The translations under genes and the position numbers were made by a program. A stretch of 64,000 nt of DNA from Candidatus Bathyarchaeia archaeon (GTDB lineage: Archaea; Thermoproteota; CALKCG01; B24): the NCBI GenBank assembly GCA_038870975.1, contig JAVZJD010000001.1, positions 800,001 to 864,000 of the forward strand, given 5' to 3'. Positions 4,584-54,700 of the stretch are shown piece by piece. The notes under the pieces are model-generated. The model had not been told where the DNA came from and did no database searches. It saw only the letters and a program-made list of their open reading frames with translations. How positions within the stretch are numbered: the stretch's first letter is position 1; the number at the start of each line of letters is the position of its first letter.

Positions 4584-4677
4584 TTATCTCCGCCTCTCCC
4601 AGCCTTTTTAACATTACTTTAATTAGCACACTCATAAAATTTAAAAACTACAATTGCTTATAATTCTTGACCCCGTC

Positions 4678-5283
4678 ATGAGCAAAAGTACTGTAGAGTC
4701 GAGAGAGGTTAAATTTCCACCGAGTGAAGCATTCAGGTTTAGCATCGAAAGTATAAAGAGGCGTTTTGTAAGAGCTCTAATAACCGCGGTGTCGATAATC
4801 CTAGGCATAGCCTTCTACGTAGGTCTTAGAACTATGTCAGACATAATGATCGCTATATATGGGTCTTCTGAAGCAGCTAAAAGTTATCAACTCTGGATGG
4901 CTATAATATCTTTAATCGTCTGTGCAGTTGGAATATTAAATTCTATGTTGATGGCCGTTACAGAGAGGACTAAAGAGATCGGTACTATGAAGTGTCTTGG
5001 AGCAATGGATGGCCACATACTGATGATATTCATGTTTGAAGCCATGCTGGTAGGCATTATTGGAGGCTTACTGGGAGCTATAATAGGTTGGCTTGCCGGC
5101 GTCCTCATATACATCGGAGAGCATATGAATATAGTATTCTCCTCTACGCTTCTGGTAAACTACTTCATGAGAATGGCTGAGGGGATTCTAATAGCCATGA
5201 TTTTGAGCGTTGGAGCTACGATATACCCAGCATACCATGCTGCTAGTATGGACCCAGCTGACGCTTTAAGATTCGAGCTTTAG
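4678..5283 (+). CDS. Minimal FtsX/MacB-like ABC permease (4 TM, no extracytoplasmic domain)
   Basis: ERTKEIGTMKCLGA coupling motif; C-terminal PAYHAASMDPADALR. Confidence 0.85.
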   Translation: MSKSTVESREVKFPPSEAFRFSIESIKRRFVRALITAVSIILGIAFYVGLRTMSDIMIAIYGSSEAAKSYQLWMAIISLIVCAVGILNSMLMAVTERTKEIGTMKCLGAMDGHILMIFMFEAMLVGIIGGLLGAIIGWLAGVLIYIGEHMNIVFSSTLLVNYFMRMAEGILIAMILSVGATIYPAYHAASMDPADALRFEL

Positions 5284-5358
5284 ATTTCAAAAGAAGCCTA
5301 TTGAAAAAGGAAAACCTTTTATTAACATTTTTAGTCATAAAAATAAGGTGGCTGAAAC

Positions 5359-6081
5359 TTGCGGTATGAATATACAGTTGAAACGGAAGACCTGGCTAAG
5401 TATTACCAGCTTGGAGAGGTAGTTGTCAAAGCGTTAGACGGTATCGATTTGAGGATCAGACGTGGCGAATACTTATCTATCATGGGTCCCTCGGGGAGCG
5501 GTAAAACCACGCTTTTCAACATGATCGGTGGTCTGGATAGGCCTACGAGGGGAAGGGTCTACATAGATGAAGTCGACATATCTAAGCTTGACGCATATGA
5601 ACTCGCTTGGCTTAGATGCCGTAAGATAGGCTACATATTCCAAACCTTCAACTTAATTCCAGTTTTAACGGCGCTTGAAAACGTTACGTTGCCTATGATA
5701 TTCGCGGGTGTCCCTAGAGAAGAGAGAATGCGAAGAGCTGTGGAAATTCTAAACAGAGTTGGTTTGGGAGATAGGCTACACCATAAGCCTGCTGAGCTTT
5801 CTGGAGGGCAACAGCAGAGAGTTGCAATCGCAAGAGCCTTGGCTAACGACCCGGTCATAGTCTTGGCGGATGAGCCTACTGGAAACCTTGACCTCCACAC
5901 TGGATTGGAGATCATAAACATGCTTAGGCAGCTTAATGTTGAGAAGGGTGTGACGATTTTCACAGCTACACACGACTTAAAGATGATAGATGTATCGGAT
6001 AGAATAGTATGGATACGTGACGGTAAAATAGATAGGATTGAGAAGAGGGTCGACGTAGTAGTAGGTATGGAGGAGGTTTAA
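5359..6081 (+). CDS. ABC ATP-binding protein (LolD/MacB/FtsE-like)
   Basis: GPSGSGKT, LSGGQQQR, ADEPTGNLD, ATHD. Confidence 0.95.
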   Translation: MRYEYTVETEDLAKYYQLGEVVVKALDGIDLRIRRGEYLSIMGPSGSGKTTLFNMIGGLDRPTRGRVYIDEVDISKLDAYELAWLRCRKIGYIFQTFNLIPVLTALENVTLPMIFAGVPREERMRRAVEILNRVGLGDRLHHKPAELSGGQQQRVAIARALANDPVIVLADEPTGNLDLHTGLEIINMLRQLNVEKGVTIFTATHDLKMIDVSDRIVWIRDGKIDRIEKRVDVVVGMEEV

Positions 6082-47407: not shown

Positions 47408-47486
47408 GGGGCCGTCGGCTAGTTTGGTCTAGGCTACGTGGCTCGGGCCCACGTGATCGCCGGTTCAAATCCGGCCGGCCCCACCA
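47408..47486 (+). tRNA. tRNA-Pro(CGG), intronless, CCA encoded
   Basis: GGGGCCG/CGGCCCC acceptor stem plus ACCA; anticodon arm CGTGG-CTCGGGC-CCACG; GGTTCAAATCC. Confidence 0.95.
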
Positions 47487-47641
47487 CTCTCTCATGATAA
47501 GAATCTCTTTTAAATCAAACAGTTCTCAAATGGGGGAAATATACTCGGCTTAATCTAACACCACTTAAATACGTCATAGTGGTGACCTATGTAGGTAACA
47601 TTTATATTATTTCTTAGACTTCTAATTTTCTGGTAAGTCCA

Positions 47642-48403
47642 TTGGACCGGGGTACCCCTAGCATATCTGAAATCGTCTCTACAACAATTCGAGAATTTAA
47701 TGAAACTTCTAACATGTTGAGAGACATGCGTATTAAACTGGAAAAGCTCAATCAATTGATTTCAAGCGGTCAAGTCAGCTCTCAAACAGCTGAATCCATA
47801 AGGAAAGACTACATATCTCAACTCATAGGGCTTCTAGACAAGTTTTTCAAGCTTAGATCAGAGCTGGAAGACTTAAGAGTTAGGTGTATAGTTGAAATGG
47901 AAAGGGCTAGGGTCAACGCTAGTGCAACGGGCTCTTCAGAGATAGTATCAAGACTTGAAGAACTTACGATAAGGATAGATGATGCCTTAGAAAGCCTAGA
48001 TATGGACGCCAGGCTCTTCATAGCTTCTCAGTACATCCAACACCTTAAAAGCCCAGATGTAGACCAAAGTACTTTAAAGGAGAAAAAGCTGGCATACCGT
48101 AGATTCGTCGACTCGATAATTGAAAGCTGGCTTGTAGATAAGGCAGATTTAGAATCGGAGCTATCCGATCTTGAAAGGGATGCTAACAATCTTAGGGAAC
48201 AGCTTAAAGAGCTGTGGGTTAGATTCATGGTCGGCGAGTATGACAGGGGGGAATATGATGCTAAGAGGGTTAGACTAGAGGAAGAACTTTCATCTATGAA
48301 TTCACGTATAACGGAACTTAGGAGTAGGTTGGATGCAATAGATGAGCGGATAATCGAGTTAACAAGCGTAATAGGAGCTGAGGAGGTTGAAGAAACCAGT
48401 TAA
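47642..48403 (+). CDS. CdvA-like coiled-coil protein
   Basis: All-helical heptad pattern with LNQLISSGQVSSQTAE and LWVRFMVGEYDRGEY turn motifs resembling the CdvA coiled-coil domain. Confidence 0.6.
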   Translation: MDRGTPSISEIVSTTIREFNETSNMLRDMRIKLEKLNQLISSGQVSSQTAESIRKDYISQLIGLLDKFFKLRSELEDLRVRCIVEMERARVNASATGSSEIVSRLEELTIRIDDALESLDMDARLFIASQYIQHLKSPDVDQSTLKEKKLAYRRFVDSIIESWLVDKADLESELSDLERDANNLREQLKELWVRFMVGEYDRGEYDAKRVRLEEELSSMNSRITELRSRLDAIDERIIELTSVIGAEEVEETS

Positions 48404-51086
48404 TATTTTAATAGGAATTTTACTTCTGTCGACGCTTCTACCTGCTGCTTCTATTCTCAGCTCGGTTTTAGCCGGGTCGGAAACCAATCCAATACGAGTA
48501 TATGTTGAAACGCCTTTAAAACTCAAGTATGTTTCTGAGCCTGTTGTTTTTTCCGCTAATTTCTCCTATGGTGAGGCTGGTTTAGGCTCTCTGAGGGTTT
48601 TGGATGAGAATGGTTTTGAAATACCATATCAGATACTTGAAGCCCAATACTATCCAAACACTCAATACTACAGCTACGCTAAAATCCTAATCCTAACAGA
48701 CGTCTCAAGCAGTATGAATAGAAGCTACACACTCAAATACACACCGCAAGCTACAATCACACCAGATTATACAGAAAAGTCAGACTTGAAAGTGTTCAAA
48801 GTAGTTGTTGGAAATGAAACGCACTTAATCATTAAAAACAGCTACGTTCAAGCTGTCTTCATAGAAGGCTCTCCACTCGGTCTTTACGCTCTCTACGACC
48901 TCTCCTCAGGCTTAAATGAATCTATAGTTCCACCCTCGTGGAGCTTTGCATCGCCATGTGTAATGGTAAACAACACATGGCTCACGCCGGCCGATATGAG
49001 TAAGACAAACGTGACTATCTCAATCAACGGCTCACTTTGCGTCGAAGTCCGTGTAAAAGGCTCTTATCCTGGTGTTTTAGTTGAGAGGGTTTTCAGGTTT
49101 TACGCTAAAAGCCGCTTCTTCGACTTTGAAACAATATTCACACCCATAGGAAGCCCAACGATCACAGCCATAAGCCCATTCAACACAATGTACCGAAGAG
49201 AACTATACCAGATACTGCTATTATCAGACGGCTCTATCCTACCGTTGGCTTCGACATCTTACGTCGGATCGTTTAAAGCTGGAAATTGGTCTGCAATTAC
49301 CGGATCACATGGAGGAATATGGATAGCAATCGAACCTAGAGAAATTTTAACGCGTCTCATAATGCAGACCGATATACCAGGCTACTATATGATGACTTAC
49401 CTCGCCGACTGTATGAAACTCATTGAGGGCCAAACTTTGGCCTTTAAAGGTAGAGCTACATTACTTCATGAGCATTTTGATCTAAAAATGCTGGAGAATG
49501 AGTTTCTGAGGTTTAGAACACCCCCTATTGTCAAAGTTAAAACCCCTATGGCTTTGATTAAAGCTCAAGGACCGAGTCAGACGCTCCTAGGCAACTTTTT
49601 CACGATAGACCTAGACGTTATTGGTTTAAAGGATTTAAACGATGTGCTTTTGAATGCTTCTTATGGTTCTGGTTTGGAGTGTTTTTCTAAGGCTGTCTAC
49701 CGTAGCTCTCTACCAGCCTATAGTATTTGGACTACTCGCTGGCTATTCAGAGCTAAAGCTGAAGGCATATACAACATAGAATTCACACTAACAACATGGA
49801 ATGAAACATACACACTAATATACCCTATGAAAGTATTTCTACCTATTATAGCACCGTCCGTCAACGTAACGTTCTTCGTCTCAGATTACGATGGTGAATC
49901 CATCCAAAGAAATATCATGCTTAAGCTTGTAAACCCGGCTGGTATAACACTAAATCTCCCTATAGGCTCCTCTGGTAACGTGTCGGTTAAGATTCAAATG
50001 GGTCGGTATGAATGGTACGCATACGATGGAAATCAGACGATAGGTAAAGGCGTGGTGGAGATTTTCAGACCTGAGAATATAACTCTGAGGACTTGGCTTT
50101 ACGATTTCAACGTCGTGGTTTTAAGCACCGATGGTAGTCCATTGGCAGGTGTTTTAGCGATTCTCAAATCTCTGACTATGAATACAACAAAGGAATACGT
50201 CCGTTTATCCGGTTCAACAGGCTTAATACGGTTCAGCGACATCATAAATGGATCTTACAATCTTAAAATACTCGGATGGCAAGGCGAATTAATTGAAAAT
50301 ACAACTGTAACCATTCAGAAGGATGAGTTATACCATAGGGTAGTAGCTGAAGCTTGGGTTGTTAAAGTCCGAGTTTTAGATACAGATAGAGCCCCGGTTT
50401 TCAATGCATCTGTTTACCTACTCGATGAGAACATGACTCAGATAAAGACAGTAGAGACAGATGAGAACGGCTATGCTCTTCTAGGTGGGTTGGTTAGAGG
50501 AAACTACAGTATTAGAGTTGAATACTCAGGTGTGGTGGTCGGCTATCAGTACTTTAAAGTACCTATTGAAGGTCAAATTTTAGAAGCACCCTGTCGCATA
50601 TGTAGACTAGAAGTCATTCCTGTCGATCCGTGGAATAATCCTCTGATAGGATCGGAAGTTACTATATCGTTTAGACCAACACCTTACACATATCAGACGT
50701 TCAGCGGGGTTTTCAAGGATCCTGAAAAGCCAATATCCCTTTTGTTGCCTGAAGGTTCTTCATGCACTATTAGGGCCTTGAGCGGCCTGTATGAAGGTTC
50801 TTCAGATATAGTCGTTAGAAGGTCTACTAGGCTTGTCTTAAACACATCTATAAGAATGTCAGCTGTATTCATGCCTGGGTTGACGGTCTTCTTCTGGATA
50901 TTCGTGGTGTATAGTTGGCGGAGGAGGATTAGAGTCTTCTCGGTTGAGGTTTTAAAATTGAAGAGCATGCTGTCTAAACTCGAGGAACTCTACCGTAGTG
51001 GTGAAGTAGATGCCCCACTCTACGGAAAACTTAAAAGAGAGTATGAGGATAGGTTACATAAGCTTCTCGAAGGTGGTTCATCTTGA
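48387..51086 (+). CDS. Large single-pass surface glycoprotein (beta-sandwich and carboxypeptidase-regulatory-like repeats) with cytoplasmic helical tail
   Basis: Signal peptide, many NxS/T sequons, repeats such as V.VLDTDRAPV.NASV..TDENGYA..G.Y.I, C-terminal TM then LEELYRSGEVDAPLYGKLKREY. Confidence 0.8.
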   Translation: MKKPVNILIGILLLSTLLPAASILSSVLAGSETNPIRVYVETPLKLKYVSEPVVFSANFSYGEAGLGSLRVLDENGFEIPYQILEAQYYPNTQYYSYAKILILTDVSSSMNRSYTLKYTPQATITPDYTEKSDLKVFKVVVGNETHLIIKNSYVQAVFIEGSPLGLYALYDLSSGLNESIVPPSWSFASPCVMVNNTWLTPADMSKTNVTISINGSLCVEVRVKGSYPGVLVERVFRFYAKSRFFDFETIFTPIGSPTITAISPFNTMYRRELYQILLLSDGSILPLASTSYVGSFKAGNWSAITGSHGGIWIAIEPREILTRLIMQTDIPGYYMMTYLADCMKLIEGQTLAFKGRATLLHEHFDLKMLENEFLRFRTPPIVKVKTPMALIKAQGPSQTLLGNFFTIDLDVIGLKDLNDVLLNASYGSGLECFSKAVYRSSLPAYSIWTTRWLFRAKAEGIYNIEFTLTTWNETYTLIYPMKVFLPIIAPSVNVTFFVSDYDGESIQRNIMLKLVNPAGITLNLPIGSSGNVSVKIQMGRYEWYAYDGNQTIGKGVVEIFRPENITLRTWLYDFNVVVLSTDGSPLAGVLAILKSLTMNTTKEYVRLSGSTGLIRFSDIINGSYNLKILGWQGELIENTTVTIQKDELYHRVVAEAWVVKVRVLDTDRAPVFNASVYLLDENMTQIKTVETDENGYALLGGLVRGNYSIRVEYSGVVVGYQYFKVPIEGQILEAPCRICRLEVIPVDPWNNPLIGSEVTISFRPTPYTYQTFSGVFKDPEKPISLLLPEGSSCTIRALSGLYEGSSDIVVRRSTRLVLNTSIRMSAVFMPGLTVFFWIFVVYSWRRRIRVFSVEVLKLKSMLSKLEELYRSGEVDAPLYGKLKREYEDRLHKLLEGGSS

Positions 51087-54000
51087 AAATGGTGAAAAAC
51101 GCTATTTTTCTACTTCTCCTTTTAACTCTTACACAGGTCTACGGATTTAATCTACCCGTGAAAGCCCAACAAACATCTGCAACGTCAACACCATATGTTA
51201 AATATACTTTAATAACATATTTCATGGACTATTTAACAAACTCTCCAGAGCCACGTTTAAACGTCACTTTGGTTTTAAACGGTTATACTGTAAAAGGTTT
51301 AACTGACGACTTCGGCTCTTTAAAATCCTCTTTTAATGCTTCGAGAGATTTAGCCAACGTTATTCTATTGAATAGTCTATCAGTATATGGTAATTTTACA
51401 GTCGTAAAAATTCAAGACTACATGATGGAATACTTAAGATACGATGTTACATACTCAAGAAACACAATAACCTACAGCGGTTTAGAAGTAAGGCCGACAA
51501 TAGTGACTGCAGAGAAGGAAATACTACTGTACTACTACATATACACGTTGAAGAGTAGATTCGTCAATGTAAGCGATTTAGACGTTTCAACGATGGAAAT
51601 TCTACCAAACGGTGAAGTGCAATTCAGAAGGGATAAAATGGTTTTAGACGCTAGACCAGCCGTACCCGTAAATAGACAGTTGAGTAGATATGAAAGCCTA
51701 TACCTATTCCCAATAAACTACACGGTCACAGTCAGAGTGAGAATCTTCAGGTTCAGGTTCTTACCTGAAACGTATCCAGTTAAAGTATTCGTTACTGAAA
51801 ACACATCCTACGTTAACGTTATGGGTCCGGTTTTACACTTCAGAATAAACGAGACAATATCACCTCTGATAGAGAGGATAGATACTCTGAAAACCCTAGG
51901 ACTTCCAATGGTAGATGAGGAAAGGCTTGTTACAAAAATAGTCAATCAGAACACCAACATACTTCAGCTGATTGAAAATCGGAGTTACGATTCAGCGTTA
52001 ACTCAACTGAGATTCCTAGCTAAAAAGATATCAAATCTCCAATCCAATCTGTCAAATCTCAATGCGTCTTTAATGTTATCATGTGTAATAGTTATAGCAT
52101 TCATATACGCATTTTCATCACTTACTTCCACTTTAATAACGGACGACGCGAGGAAGAAATTCTTGTTGAAATTCATACTATATTTCACGCTGTTCTTCAT
52201 CTTCCTTGTATCCCATAATGAATTTAAAATAGCATTATCAATACTTTCATCCAACTTCCTACTTACAGATATTAAATATTTAGACAATTTCACAGTCCTA
52301 GTTATAGGTTCAACCCTCGGCAGTCTAGGTATTCTAATACCAACATTAATATCTCTATATTCTCCACCAATCATAAGTTTAAGCCTAGATCTAAGCATAA
52401 GAGACGTAAAAAGACATCTGACAAGATCAATCCTAACAATCATAGCATTCTCTCTCATAATTGCATCAGTCTTAGCAGTATTCAAAATATCCTACAGTCA
52501 CATTTTAACTGAGAAAACAATTCAGACGTCCTTCAAAACAGACGTAATAGGTCTACAGTCAACTCAGGAAAATATAATAGTTAAAAACGATTTAATCTTC
52601 ATAAAATCCATGGAATGGGTAAATACAACATACTACGTTAAATCACTCTATGATACTATTACAATAGGTCCATTGTCAGGGTTCACTGCTATAAGATTGG
52701 TTTCCCCGAGCTCTGGACTCCTAGATCAGAGGCTTGACATAATTGGTGTGGACCCTGTTTTCCTAAACGACTACTTCAAGTTCTCTCTAAATATTGTAAG
52801 AGGTAGCTATATTTCTGGGAATGAAAGTGCAATTCTAGTGCCTTCTTCATTAAGCAACTCTTTAAGGCTCTCTGAAAAAGTCCGTGTTAGATTCGTAATA
52901 GTGAGTAATATTGCCAATAACTTGGTAGACGTCGCCGAGTACGACTTAGGCGACTTCATAGTTAAAGGCTTCTTCAATCCAGACTCCGTTGAAGAAGTTA
53001 AACTTCCAGACGGTTCTCCGCTGATAGAGTATCCATATAGGACGATAATAGTCTCTGAGTCTCTCCTTCCAGACTCTATTGACGCCCGTAGGTTGAGAAT
53101 AACAGTACCTAGGCTCTCGCTGGGGATTTCGCAAAGTGAGCCCTATTATATAGATATTTTCAAAGTTAAGCATGCTTTTATAGTTCCAGAACCAAAATTC
53201 CACGTGGACGTCTATGAAAAGGCTAGAGAACTTCTAGACCTTACAGGATGTAGAGTCTTCGCGTATTCAAATGGGGTATGTAAGACATTTGAAGAACTCT
53301 ACATTCTGAACATAGTCGGCTTTTCATCGATTATTCCACCTATTCTCATAGTGACTTCAATAATAGTTCTAACCATGAACTCTATAATCTACGAGAGGCG
53401 TAGGGAAATATGGACTCTAGCTGTTGTAGGAGGTAATCCACGTTCTATAACAAATATGTTTCTAATGGAAGCCCTCATAACAGGACTCCTATCTACAGCG
53501 ATAGGATATTTATTCTACACTGGCTTCTACTTGACGTCTGGCGTTCTCGCCCCGTTGGTAAGTAACTGGTACCCTGAATTATTCAACATATTTACTGAGA
53601 TGAAAATGGCTTCAGGCTTTGAGCTGACGTCTATTTTAGTAATAGTGCTCGTAGGATTAGGTGTCCCACTACTTGGAAGCTATATTCCATGCGTTAAAGC
53701 TCAAGGGCTAACCCTGCTTGGTAGAAGCCCTAGACGAAACATAGGTGCCGACGTGCGTAGACGTGGCGACACGGCTGAGTATGTGCTTCCAGTTAGAGCC
53801 ACACCGTTAGACGGTGAAGCACTATACACATATTTAAAGGACAACTTCTTCACACGTGCCTTCCAAGTTAGAAAGCTCTCTGGAAACGCCTACCAAGATG
53901 GGACATTCGACTTCAAATTCACATTCCAGTTTAGAAACGTGCTCACAGAATGTGTACTCAGAGGTGTTAGAAGAGGAGATACCATATATCCAATCTTGGA

Positions 54001-54700
54001 ATTCCCAGCCGAATATTCTGATGCCATGGACCTTCACAAGTTCATATATGAGCTTGAGAAGACTACGCTTAACTATCCGTCGTGGAGGGAGAGACGTATA
54101 AGATTAGACATAGTCAGAGTTCAGCCTGTGACCAGAGTCAGAACCGTAGATGACGTTCTAAGAGACGTTAAAGTCATAAGAGAGCAGTTGCACGTAGTTA
54201 CAAGTAAGCTTAAGACCATAGAGAAGCTTAAGGCTACAACCCCATCTGAGCTTTTAGCAGAGTACGAGGCTAAATATGCTGCTCAAGCCGATAGACTCAA
54301 TAAGGCTATAAAGCGGCTTGGATTGGAACTTGAACCGTTGTATGAACAGCTCAACAGTGAAGTTCAAAAACTTAATACAGAAATCGAAAAGCTCAACATA
54401 GCTTATAAACTAGGAGAAATGTCTGAGGAAGATTATAAGACTTCATCGGAGCCTCTGAAGACTAGGCTTAACGAGCTTACGAGAAAGCTTGAAGATATAC
54501 GCTTCGTATTAACCCAGCTTAAAATGCCTAAAGTCACAATGCCAAGTATTAGAGCACCTGCGGCTAGAAGAGCTGCAAGACGTAAGCCAGCTGAAGAAGC
54601 ACCGGGCCTCATGTACTGTCCATACTGTGGAAGTACAAACCTCACTAAAACGCCGAGCGGTTCAATAGTATGCGGTAGATGCCGTAGAAAACTCCGTTAA
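51083..54700 (+). CDS. Giant FtsX/MacB-like permease with C-terminal CdvA-like coiled coil and Zn ribbon
   Basis: RDVKRHLTRSILT TM motif, MacB-like extracytoplasmic core (IIGVDP..RGSYI), ERRREIWTLAVVGG coupling motif, coiled coil, CPYC..CGRC. Confidence 0.8.
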   Translation: MKMVKNAIFLLLLLTLTQVYGFNLPVKAQQTSATSTPYVKYTLITYFMDYLTNSPEPRLNVTLVLNGYTVKGLTDDFGSLKSSFNASRDLANVILLNSLSVYGNFTVVKIQDYMMEYLRYDVTYSRNTITYSGLEVRPTIVTAEKEILLYYYIYTLKSRFVNVSDLDVSTMEILPNGEVQFRRDKMVLDARPAVPVNRQLSRYESLYLFPINYTVTVRVRIFRFRFLPETYPVKVFVTENTSYVNVMGPVLHFRINETISPLIERIDTLKTLGLPMVDEERLVTKIVNQNTNILQLIENRSYDSALTQLRFLAKKISNLQSNLSNLNASLMLSCVIVIAFIYAFSSLTSTLITDDARKKFLLKFILYFTLFFIFLVSHNEFKIALSILSSNFLLTDIKYLDNFTVLVIGSTLGSLGILIPTLISLYSPPIISLSLDLSIRDVKRHLTRSILTIIAFSLIIASVLAVFKISYSHILTEKTIQTSFKTDVIGLQSTQENIIVKNDLIFIKSMEWVNTTYYVKSLYDTITIGPLSGFTAIRLVSPSSGLLDQRLDIIGVDPVFLNDYFKFSLNIVRGSYISGNESAILVPSSLSNSLRLSEKVRVRFVIVSNIANNLVDVAEYDLGDFIVKGFFNPDSVEEVKLPDGSPLIEYPYRTIIVSESLLPDSIDARRLRITVPRLSLGISQSEPYYIDIFKVKHAFIVPEPKFHVDVYEKARELLDLTGCRVFAYSNGVCKTFEELYILNIVGFSSIIPPILIVTSIIVLTMNSIIYERRREIWTLAVVGGNPRSITNMFLMEALITGLLSTAIGYLFYTGFYLTSGVLAPLVSNWYPELFNIFTEMKMASGFELTSILVIVLVGLGVPLLGSYIPCVKAQGLTLLGRSPRRNIGADVRRRGDTAEYVLPVRATPLDGEALYTYLKDNFFTRAFQVRKLSGNAYQDGTFDFKFTFQFRNVLTECVLRGVRRGDTIYPILEFPAEYSDAMDLHKFIYELEKTTLNYPSWRERRIRLDIVRVQPVTRVRTVDDVLRDVKVIREQLHVVTSKLKTIEKLKATTPSELLAEYEAKYAAQADRLNKAIKRLGLELEPLYEQLNSEVQKLNTEIEKLNIAYKLGEMSEEDYKTSSEPLKTRLNELTRKLEDIRFVLTQLKMPKVTMPSIRAPAARRAARRKPAEEAPGLMYCPYCGSTNLTKTPSGSIVCGRCRRKLR

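Follow-up and report, generated by a model that had tools for sequence, protein, structure and literature searches.

A stretch of 64 kb from a Candidatus Bathyarchaeia archaeon (G000:C1:800001-864000; hereafter the window, to which coordinates refer unless a contig or locus is named) contains three genes on the + strand, labelled g1, g2 and g3. The last of them encodes a giant permease of the MacB/LolE/FtsX type that carries a genuine CdvA-type three-helix coiled coil, a conclusion well supported by sequence profiles and by the modeled fold. Judging from its model, the C-terminal half of the g1 product is probably CdvA-like as well, and for the cytoplasmic tail of the surface glycoprotein encoded by g2 a resemblance to one hairpin of CdvA is plausible. 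With slightly better than even confidence, we consider the triad an envelope module that is conserved in Bathyarchaeia-type Thermoproteota and limited to that lineage, and whose parts, namely g1, the tail of g2 and the coiled coil of g3, would assemble by their hairpin tips. The host is a Bathyarchaeia-type metagenome-assembled genome of 1.85 Mb, in 2 contigs, with a completeness of 92.9%.

CdvA likeness of the three proteins

The g3 gene (51083..54700, +), delimited as an open reading frame (ORF) and assigned by Pfam and by a profile of its family, encodes a protein of 1205 amino acids (aa). Its residues 1023-1150 (54149..54532, +), recognized by Pfam, hhalign and fold comparison, are predicted to form the CdvA-like three-helix coiled coil, in which the second hairpin tip reads ..LNIAYKLGEMSEEDY.. 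in the sequence. Against the Pfam model PF18822, g3 scored 27.6 bits in hmmscan (E 3e-6, profile positions 12-109 of 123), for a cut-off of 30; in a six-frame search of the genome it reached 32.5 bits and was the sole match beside the genome's true CdvA. The same model was matched by 6 of 10 members of the g3 family. Alignment of the g3 C-terminus with 30 Thermoproteota CdvA sequences by hhalign gave 96.7% (E 3e-10) over 122 columns that included all three helices, with a score of 74, compared with 34 for the reversed alignment and 16 or less for column shuffles. When the AlphaFold2 (AF2) model of the coiled coil, with helices at 147-174, 180-234 and 240-272 in model numbering, was compared with 48,161 PDB chains, the first match was 9s9g_A, the CdvA filament of S. 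islandicus (Z 13.1, root mean square deviation [rmsd] 3.0 Å, 128 residues), and the runner-up chain reached Z 9.8; with VIA-align, values of Z ~12-13 may arise by chance for helical bundles. For its part, a sequence search of the PDB with the profile of the g3 C-terminus retrieved no CdvA at E <= 1, and the full-length g3 profile found CdvA only at E 0.32.

The g1 gene (47642..48403, +) encodes, according to its ORF, translation and AF2 model, a soluble all-helical protein of 253 aa. No transmembrane (TM) segment was found in a hydropathy scan, and the model (predicted local distance difference test [pLDDT] 90.2, predicted TM-score [pTM] 0.79) shows six helices arranged in two three-helix units. 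The second unit, identified by fold match, is the CdvA-like three-helix coiled coil (residues 119-252; 47996..48397, +; tip ..LWVRFMVGEYD..). Its residues 119-237 again gave 9s9g_A as the first PDB match (Z 12.1, rmsd 2.3 Å, 119 residues), followed by a chain with Z 10.2 among the 48,161 compared; because helical bundles can reach Z near 13 by chance, the assignment of g1 to the CdvA type is probable, not certain. The g1 of this genome showed no match to PF18822 at E <= 1, and its orthologues from two other families (genomes G010 and G035) scored 20.3 and 25.4 bits.

The cytoplasmic part of g2 bears one helical hairpin (residues 860-887; 50964..51047, +; ..LEELYRSGEVD..), delimited by hhalign and by its invariant columns. 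The tail aligned with CdvA residues 82-126, the first hairpin, at 84.8% (score 37 versus 15 reversed), and with the N-terminal hairpin of g1 at 90.6% (score 42 versus 16 reversed). The tip of this g1 hairpin (residues 31-58; 47732..47815, +; ..LEKLNQLISSGQVSS..) is conserved across families; its alignment with the first hairpin of CdvA reached 50.7%, a marginal value. In PF18822 the g2 tail scored 12.9 bits (E 0.11), a match that covers a single hairpin only. Taken over whole domains, the likeness is thus greater than chance would give: the hhalign scores of the g3 C-terminus with CdvA, and of the g2 tail with CdvA and with g1, clearly exceed both the reversed and the column-shuffled controls, and that of g1 with CdvA exceeds them marginally.

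Residues 10-123 of the g1 model and residues 208-273 of the g3 model (model numbering) also align with the cytoplasmic helical domain of an Asgard OST1/ribophorin I (8whn_A, Z ~10) and with hairpins of the ESCRT-I core (2caz_D and 2p22_A, Z 9.4-9.7). This agrees with the similarity that has been published between the CdvA hairpin and the ESCRT-I steadiness box.

The first-pass annotation of this DNA, made from its letters and ORFs, had described three overlapping, co-oriented genes for a soluble helical protein, a single-pass surface glycoprotein and a giant FtsX/MacB-type permease. That description holds: the three + strand ORFs are present, and TM scans, models and profiles support the nature of their products. 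The same annotation had attributed to them a shared helix-turn-helix motif. All four strings quoted as examples are present (g1 residues 36-57 and 191-208, g2 865-886 and g3 1104-1120), but no single spacing of the consensus as written (L..x..G) suits all four; used as a literal regular expression, the consensus matched 0 of the 4 strings and gave one unrelated match in the genome, which is chance level, and it was discarded. Hidden Markov models (HMMs) of 28 residues built on single proteins cross-detected only in the direction from the g1 N-terminal hairpin to the g2 tail (iE 0.013). When a pooled motif HMM trained without CdvA was run over the 2709 ORFs of the genome, its best non-self match was the first tip of CdvA (E 0.04). 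The resemblance to CdvA proposed for the three proteins is upheld for g3, by profile and fold; it is plausible for the g2 tail, which has one hairpin, and for g1, on account of its fold and of a weak Pfam signal among its orthologues. A resemblance to SHOCT, proposed alongside it, amounts to a weak alternative label (E 0.07-0.09, below the cut-off).

Architecture, distribution and conservation of the operon

A TATA-like sequence, TTTATATT (47601..47608, +), read from the DNA ~38 nucleotides (nt) 5' of the start of g1, is a candidate promoter for the operon. The genes g1 and g2 overlap by 17 nt, and g2 and g3 by 4 nt, or are separated by a gap of 2 nt if g3 begins at the ATG of the public gene calls. 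In public annotations the products appear as 'FtsX-like permease', 'hypothetical protein' and, once, 'CdvA-like protein'. A tRNA-Pro (CGG) gene lies at window 47408-47486 (+), inside the 330-nt gap separating a UxaE-like gene from g1.

The g2 gene (48387..51086, +) encodes a single-pass surface glycoprotein of 899 aa, as indicated by its ORF and translation and by domain and hydropathy scans. A signal peptide is followed by an N-terminal domain without a family match, Ig/transthyretin-like repeats, a TM helix (residues 824-842; 50856..50912, +; hydropathy scan) and the 57-aa tail, which is assigned to the cytoplasm because the basic stretch WRRRIR comes directly after the TM helix. The protein contains 21 N-x-S/T sequons, and CarboxypepD_reg, bMG3 and SpaA-type domains were found in 6/6 g2 orthologues. 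Searches with Pfam, NCBIfam and PDB profiles gave no assignment for the N-terminal ectodomain (~480 aa); in the ESM Atlas, leads to a PcRGLX-type lyase were obtained that are weak (scores 0.84-0.87, under the threshold of the tool).

In g3, a signal peptide precedes an N-terminal ectodomain without a family match (residues 27-329, with 10 sequons), which together with three extra TM helices (330-425) occupies 51161..52357 (+) according to the hydropathy and sequon scan. The type VII ATP-binding cassette (ABC) core follows (52427..53674, +; Pfam FtsX and LolF/MacB alignment), consisting of TM1 (449-467), an extracytoplasmic domain of ~275 aa and TM2-TM4, which end at residue 864; the loop between TM2 and TM3, ERRRE..L..LGG.P, is conserved. 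The remaining ~340 aa (865-1205) are cytoplasmic and were modeled by AF2 (pLDDT 77) as an alpha/beta domain, then the three-helix coiled coil and then a zinc ribbon. The alpha/beta domain (residues 885-1000; 53735..54082, +; pLDDT 80-90) serves as the marker of the family. The C-terminal four-Cys zinc ribbon (residues 1177-1200; 54611..54682, +; Pfam Zn_Ribbon_TF, E 0.0017) resembles the ribbons of L37Ae/eL43; among the compared genomes it occurs in this taxonomic family only, and it is missing from the f4 and f19 orthologues.

Co-occurrence of the three genes in other genomes had been set beforehand as a test of the proposal, and they were found together, mostly as one operon, in seven families of Thermoproteota (f1, f4, f19, f27, f38, f47 and f48) and in one JGI metagenome contig. 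Among 41 relatives, homologues of g1, g2 and g3 co-occur in families f1, f4 and f19, and g1 orthologues are present in 12 of the 41. The triad is contiguous and co-oriented in G261, G291, G297 and G173 (f27, f47, f48 and f38, respectively), with products of ~252-267, 889-901 and 1082-1135 aa. The marker alpha/beta domain (profile A4) was detected in 28 of 401 sampled Thermoproteota genomes, belonging to 13 of 161 genera, almost always in a single-copy protein of 1082-1151 aa. In a HMMER scan of 1.84 billion representatives, the complete C-terminal module of g3 turned up in some two dozen clusters at 50% identity. Two distant g3 homologues lie at contig starts, and in both the ORF directly 5' ends in a TM helix plus a g2-type tail. 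In genome G098, an apparent 'fused' g1 of 589 aa proved to be a scaffold-gap artefact, and a 323-aa ORF upstream of its g2 gene was rejected as a g1.

Conservation is unevenly distributed along the proteins. In g2, 16 of the 48 invariant columns fall within the last 63 residues, whereas the ectodomain is 20-23% identical; in the G035 orthologue the N-terminal ectodomain is gone, and the stalk, the TM helix and the tail are kept. The invariant residues of g3 cluster in the TM2-TM3 loop and in the cytoplasmic module, and the ectodomains of g2 and g3 show merely 20-25% identity. This placement of the invariant residues, in the g2 tail and in the loop and cytoplasmic module of g3, indicates that the conserved business end of the system is the membrane and its cytoplasmic face, and that the ectodomains are fast-evolving.

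In the sister species, in genus g2 (genomes G006 and G007) and in family f4, the g2 protein has 1523-1559 aa, with a tandem duplication of an N-terminal module of ~650 aa, of which one copy seems to have been lost in the genome studied here. In the g2 gene of G002 (L020:2892-7463) the copies share an identical stretch, which corresponds to identical antisense ORFs (L020 3608-4123 and 5480-5995). A family member of 1675 aa, P0056 (L052:3229-8256), gives a weak match to GH15 (glucoamylase-like) in an enlarged ectodomain and has no g2 gene upstream; it may be a fused form.

Downstream of the triad lie, convergently, the genes for GINS51, PriS, PriL and PCNA. This adjacency, to which the first-pass annotation had drawn attention, is real here and in the sister species, but it was seen only within this genus; since the neighbours differ in other families, it is given no functional weight.

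Permease core and candidate motor

The Pfam FtsX domain (PF02687) covers residues 754-872 of g3 (43.7 bits), and a profile of ten members of the family matches LolF (3e-14), YtrF, MacB, LolE and FtsX across the whole TM1-TM4 unit. MacB/FtsX-type permeases are ATPase-driven mechanotransducers. With the type VII ABC systems (MacB, LolCDE/LolF, FtsEX and YtrF), g3 shares the FtsX Pfam domain, a conserved cytoplasmic coupling loop and a four-TM core in which TM1 and TM2 are separated by a large extracytoplasmic domain. It differs from them in that its operon has no ATPase gene in any lineage examined, and in that it is extended by the N-terminal ectodomain with its three TM helices and, on the cytoplasmic side, by 340 aa (KA1-like, CdvA-like and zinc ribbon). 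Like the proposed module, FtsEX couples a cytoplasmic machine to extracellular partners, a likeness that is functional only.

Foldseek against the PDB returned nothing at E <= 0.001. When Foldseek candidates for the alpha/beta domain were realigned with VIA, KA1 and AMPK C-terminal domains recurred, with Z 8.7 for 4yom_A (102 residues), 8.5 for 5wi2_B, 8.3 for 5iri_A and 7.7 for 3osm. According to the model, the domain would be KA1/AMPK-CTD-like, a resemblance of fold only.

The operon is free of ATPase genes, but the genome is not, an orphan LolD-type ATPase being encoded elsewhere in it. ABC_tran domains were absent within ~20 kb of g3, and the closest ones, at 805 kb and 875 kb, each adjoin a membrane partner of their own. 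One ordinary pair of this kind lies in the window at 4654-6081 (+), where the gene for a MacB/LolD-type ATPase (240 aa) comes after that for a small FtsX-type permease (209 aa as one ORF, maybe split). No gene for a membrane protein occurs within 3.5 kb of the orphan, a LolD/MacB/FtsE-type ABC ATPase of 246 aa (G000:C2:380213-380953; L074:3714-4454); it sits between the genes for dephospho-CoA kinase and RLI, and is also flanked by a RecJ-type nuclease gene. It is a candidate for a shared motor of orphan FtsX-type permeases, and the sequence of the conserved g3 coupling loop is compatible with the docking of an ATPase encoded elsewhere.

Residues 259-811 of g3 match the PADLOC model CARF_m8--CARF_LolE_TM (PDLC01991) with 85.9 bits at model positions 4-501 of 810, and the g3 orthologues extend the match to position 606; apart from this LolE-TM model, PADLOC made no defence-system assignment. 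Two more giant FtsX-type permeases without an adjacent ATPase are encoded at G000:C2:760110-763298 (L075, 1062 aa) and at G000:C1:544597-549297 (L076, 1566 aa, with an M28 peptidase ectodomain), and an orthologue of the 1062-aa permease adjoins g3 convergently in genus g2. These paralogues fit the CARF_LolE_TM model far better than g3 does (313 and 201 bits), and have in common with g3 an alpha/beta domain of similar size after TM4 (hhalign 29%, colinear). The g3 protein resembles the archaeal giant LolE-TM proteins in its TM part, in the post-TM4 alpha/beta domain and in the lack of an adjacent ATPase, whereas it leaves unmatched the C-terminal part of the model (a CARF domain by model name alone) and has there the CdvA-like coiled coil. 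On these grounds, the LolE-type membrane modules of archaea may form a wider class in which the cytoplasmic module can be exchanged, and g3 would be its coiled-coil version. The giant ATPase-less LolE-type permeases that are common in archaea can, on this evidence, bear a coiled-coil adaptor as a cytoplasmic output or input module.

Proposed assembly and comparison with known systems

The structure of CdvA, reported in 2026, combines a PRC barrel with a three-helix coiled coil, and in its protofilament the head-to-tail contacts are made by the hydrophobic tip residues A90, L94, I100 and I149, M153, I156 (PMC12818579). In our alignments, L94 and I100 fall on conserved hydrophobic positions of the first-tip motif, which the g2 tail has in common with the N-terminal hairpin of g1; the motif of g3 is the counterpart of the second tip. 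Because first-tip positions are found in g1 and the g2 tail and the second tip in g3, a tip-mediated assembly is proposed, in which the coiled coil of g3 would join with g1 and the tail of g2 under the membrane in the manner of head-to-tail CdvA subunits. The MacB-type core would undergo conformational changes, possibly powered by a LolD/FtsE-type ATPase encoded elsewhere, and these would be coupled to the cytoplasmic coiled-coil scaffold on one side and, on the other, to the ectodomains of the g2 and g3 proteins, which evolve fast, with their putative extracellular target.

Several observations weigh against this reading. The contact between the three proteins is one that we infer by analogy with CdvA. 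No PRC barrel, which CdvA needs for its double filament, was found in g1 or g3, and the first hairpin tip of g3 is devoid of the G-E-hydrophobic motif. The alignment of g1 with CdvA by hhalign is marginal (50.7%, score 36 versus 28 reversed), the short-motif HMMs from the C-terminal tip of g1 and from the g3 tip miss the other two proteins, and the caution on Z values of helical bundles applies to both fold matches. The synteny is not without exceptions either, g3 being unlinked from g1-g2 in genus g2 and g1 from the other two genes in G098. A complex prediction for the g3 C-terminus, the g2 tail and g1 gave 0.48, versus 0.58 for a control in which the g3 chain had been swapped, and was not specific; since the control scored higher, this value counts neither for nor against binding.

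The main conservative alternative, which we regard as unlikely, is that the coiled coils act only within proteins or between copies of the same one: g3 would have a homodimeric stalk, g2 a self-oligomerizing or membrane-proximal SHOCT-like hairpin, and g1 would be a separate regulator. In its favour, MacB-type permeases are dimeric. The weak cross-detection of the motif and the weak matches to SHOCT and GvpG also point in this direction, as does the prediction that SHOCT-like bihelical modules are generic membrane-proximal anchors (PMC11237479). Nevertheless, in the whole genome nothing resembles the g2 tail as much as the first hairpin of g1 does, nor the reverse, and the tail, with 25% invariant columns, is conserved across families. 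For a surface protein, a tail so well kept speaks in favour of a specific partner.

Less probable still is a link with cell division, in which the triad would be a membrane anchor or nucleator for Cdv (ESCRT-III), with the g3 and g1 domains joining or capping CdvA protofilaments, as an archaeal counterpart of FtsEX. The genome has a cdvB-cdvA-cdvB-vps4 locus at C1:245-249 kb and, at 92.9% completeness, no tubulin/FtsZ match; the CdvA-type domain is borne directly by the membrane protein g3; and in G035 genes for CdvA-like and ESCRT-III-like proteins lie ~5 kb upstream of the triad (L073:5591-6892, G035:C15:127.6-128.9 kb). In addition, the authors of the CdvA structure did not observe membrane binding by the filaments and speculated about unidentified tethers (PMC12818579). 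Set against this, the g3 marker is found in just 28/401 genomes and 13/161 genera, whereas CdvA is present in 52/81 of a separate sample of the phylum; the triad of the genome studied is 600 kb away from its cdv locus; and neither a PRC barrel nor a recognizable CdvB-binding peptide was detected in it. CdvA-like coiled coils are, moreover, promiscuous, occurring in fusions with FHA, zinc-ribbon and TM2 domains as well, according to our profile search and to the CdvA passages of PMC10936438. This explanation is kept improbable by three things: the triad is narrowly distributed, has no PRC barrel and is not linked to cdv. If it were true, the triad would be the tether, or the platform for nucleation, that CdvA filaments are missing at the membrane, and the ESCRT-III ring would be coupled, through the MacB-type mechanotransducer core and g2, to envelope remodelling on a cytoskeleton different from that of FtsEX.

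We consider it very unlikely that the triad is a plain ABC system that exports or takes up an extracellular polymer, with a shared ATPase and a convergent, unimportant coiled-coil likeness, since the conserved TM2-TM3 coupling loop, the orphan LolD-type ATPase, the one distant member with a GH15-like ectodomain and the weak, sub-threshold PcRGLX-type lyase leads for the g2 ectodomain are set against operons that, in all cases examined, contain no gene for an ATPase, a solute-binding protein or a hydrolase, against a conservation that is strongest on the cytoplasmic side and not in the ectodomains, and against a similarity of g3 to CdvA well above the controls. The 'polymer uptake machine' of the first-pass annotation likewise has no support: the solved relatives of g3 (LolF, MacB, LolE and FtsX) are type VII ABC mechanotransducers, and there is no solute-binding or uptake component.

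In comparison with known systems, the closest to the proposed envelope module is CdvA itself, a soluble, filament-forming recruiter of ESCRT-III whose membrane attachment is unexplained (PMC12818579). The S. islandicus protein (9s9g) has the three-helix coiled coil with G-E-hydrophobic hairpin tips, and gives the best PDB fold for both g3 and g1. There are also differences: g1 and g3 lack a PRC match, whereas the genome's true CdvA has one; the CdvA model NF041007 gives 13 bits, for a cut-off of 350; and the triad, at 847-855 kb, stands apart from the cdv locus (G000:C1:245-249 kb). Furthermore, no ESCRT-III-binding peptide was identified in the triad, the g3 domain resides on a polytopic membrane protein, and g2 has one hairpin.

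The coiled coil is known as a portable module from other fusions. CdvA-like domains joined to FHA (Halo_FHA, arCOG13166) and to zinc ribbons (Thermoproteales, arCOG03733/03734), as well as extra Bathyarchaeal CdvA-like proteins, are described in the CdvA passages of Makarova et al. (PMC10936438), and FHA, zinc-ribbon and TM2 fusions were also recovered in our profile search. As in g3, the coiled coil is combined there with a zinc ribbon; unlike g3, the fusions covered by those passages include no permease and no operon with a tail-bearing glycoprotein. A full-text literature search found no report of a CdvA-type permease fusion or of such an operon.

SHOCT (PF09851; PMC11237479) offers a similar parallel, as a short helix-Gly-helix unit located by the membrane at protein termini, for which the assembly of sub-membrane complexes has been predicted. 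The g2 tail and the G035 orthologue of g1 scored 13.0 and 13.4 bits, respectively, in this model (cut-off 27), whereas the same segments score equally well or better against the CdvA and GvpG models.

The triad is a real and conserved operon with an undescribed domain architecture, built of known parts, a type VII ABC permease and CdvA-like coiled coils, by which a scaffold in the cytoplasm might be connected with the cell envelope. With a CdvA-type domain on a permease and its parts recurring in the operon partners, it constitutes a testable candidate for the means by which a CdvA-type scaffold is fixed to the membrane and to the exterior.

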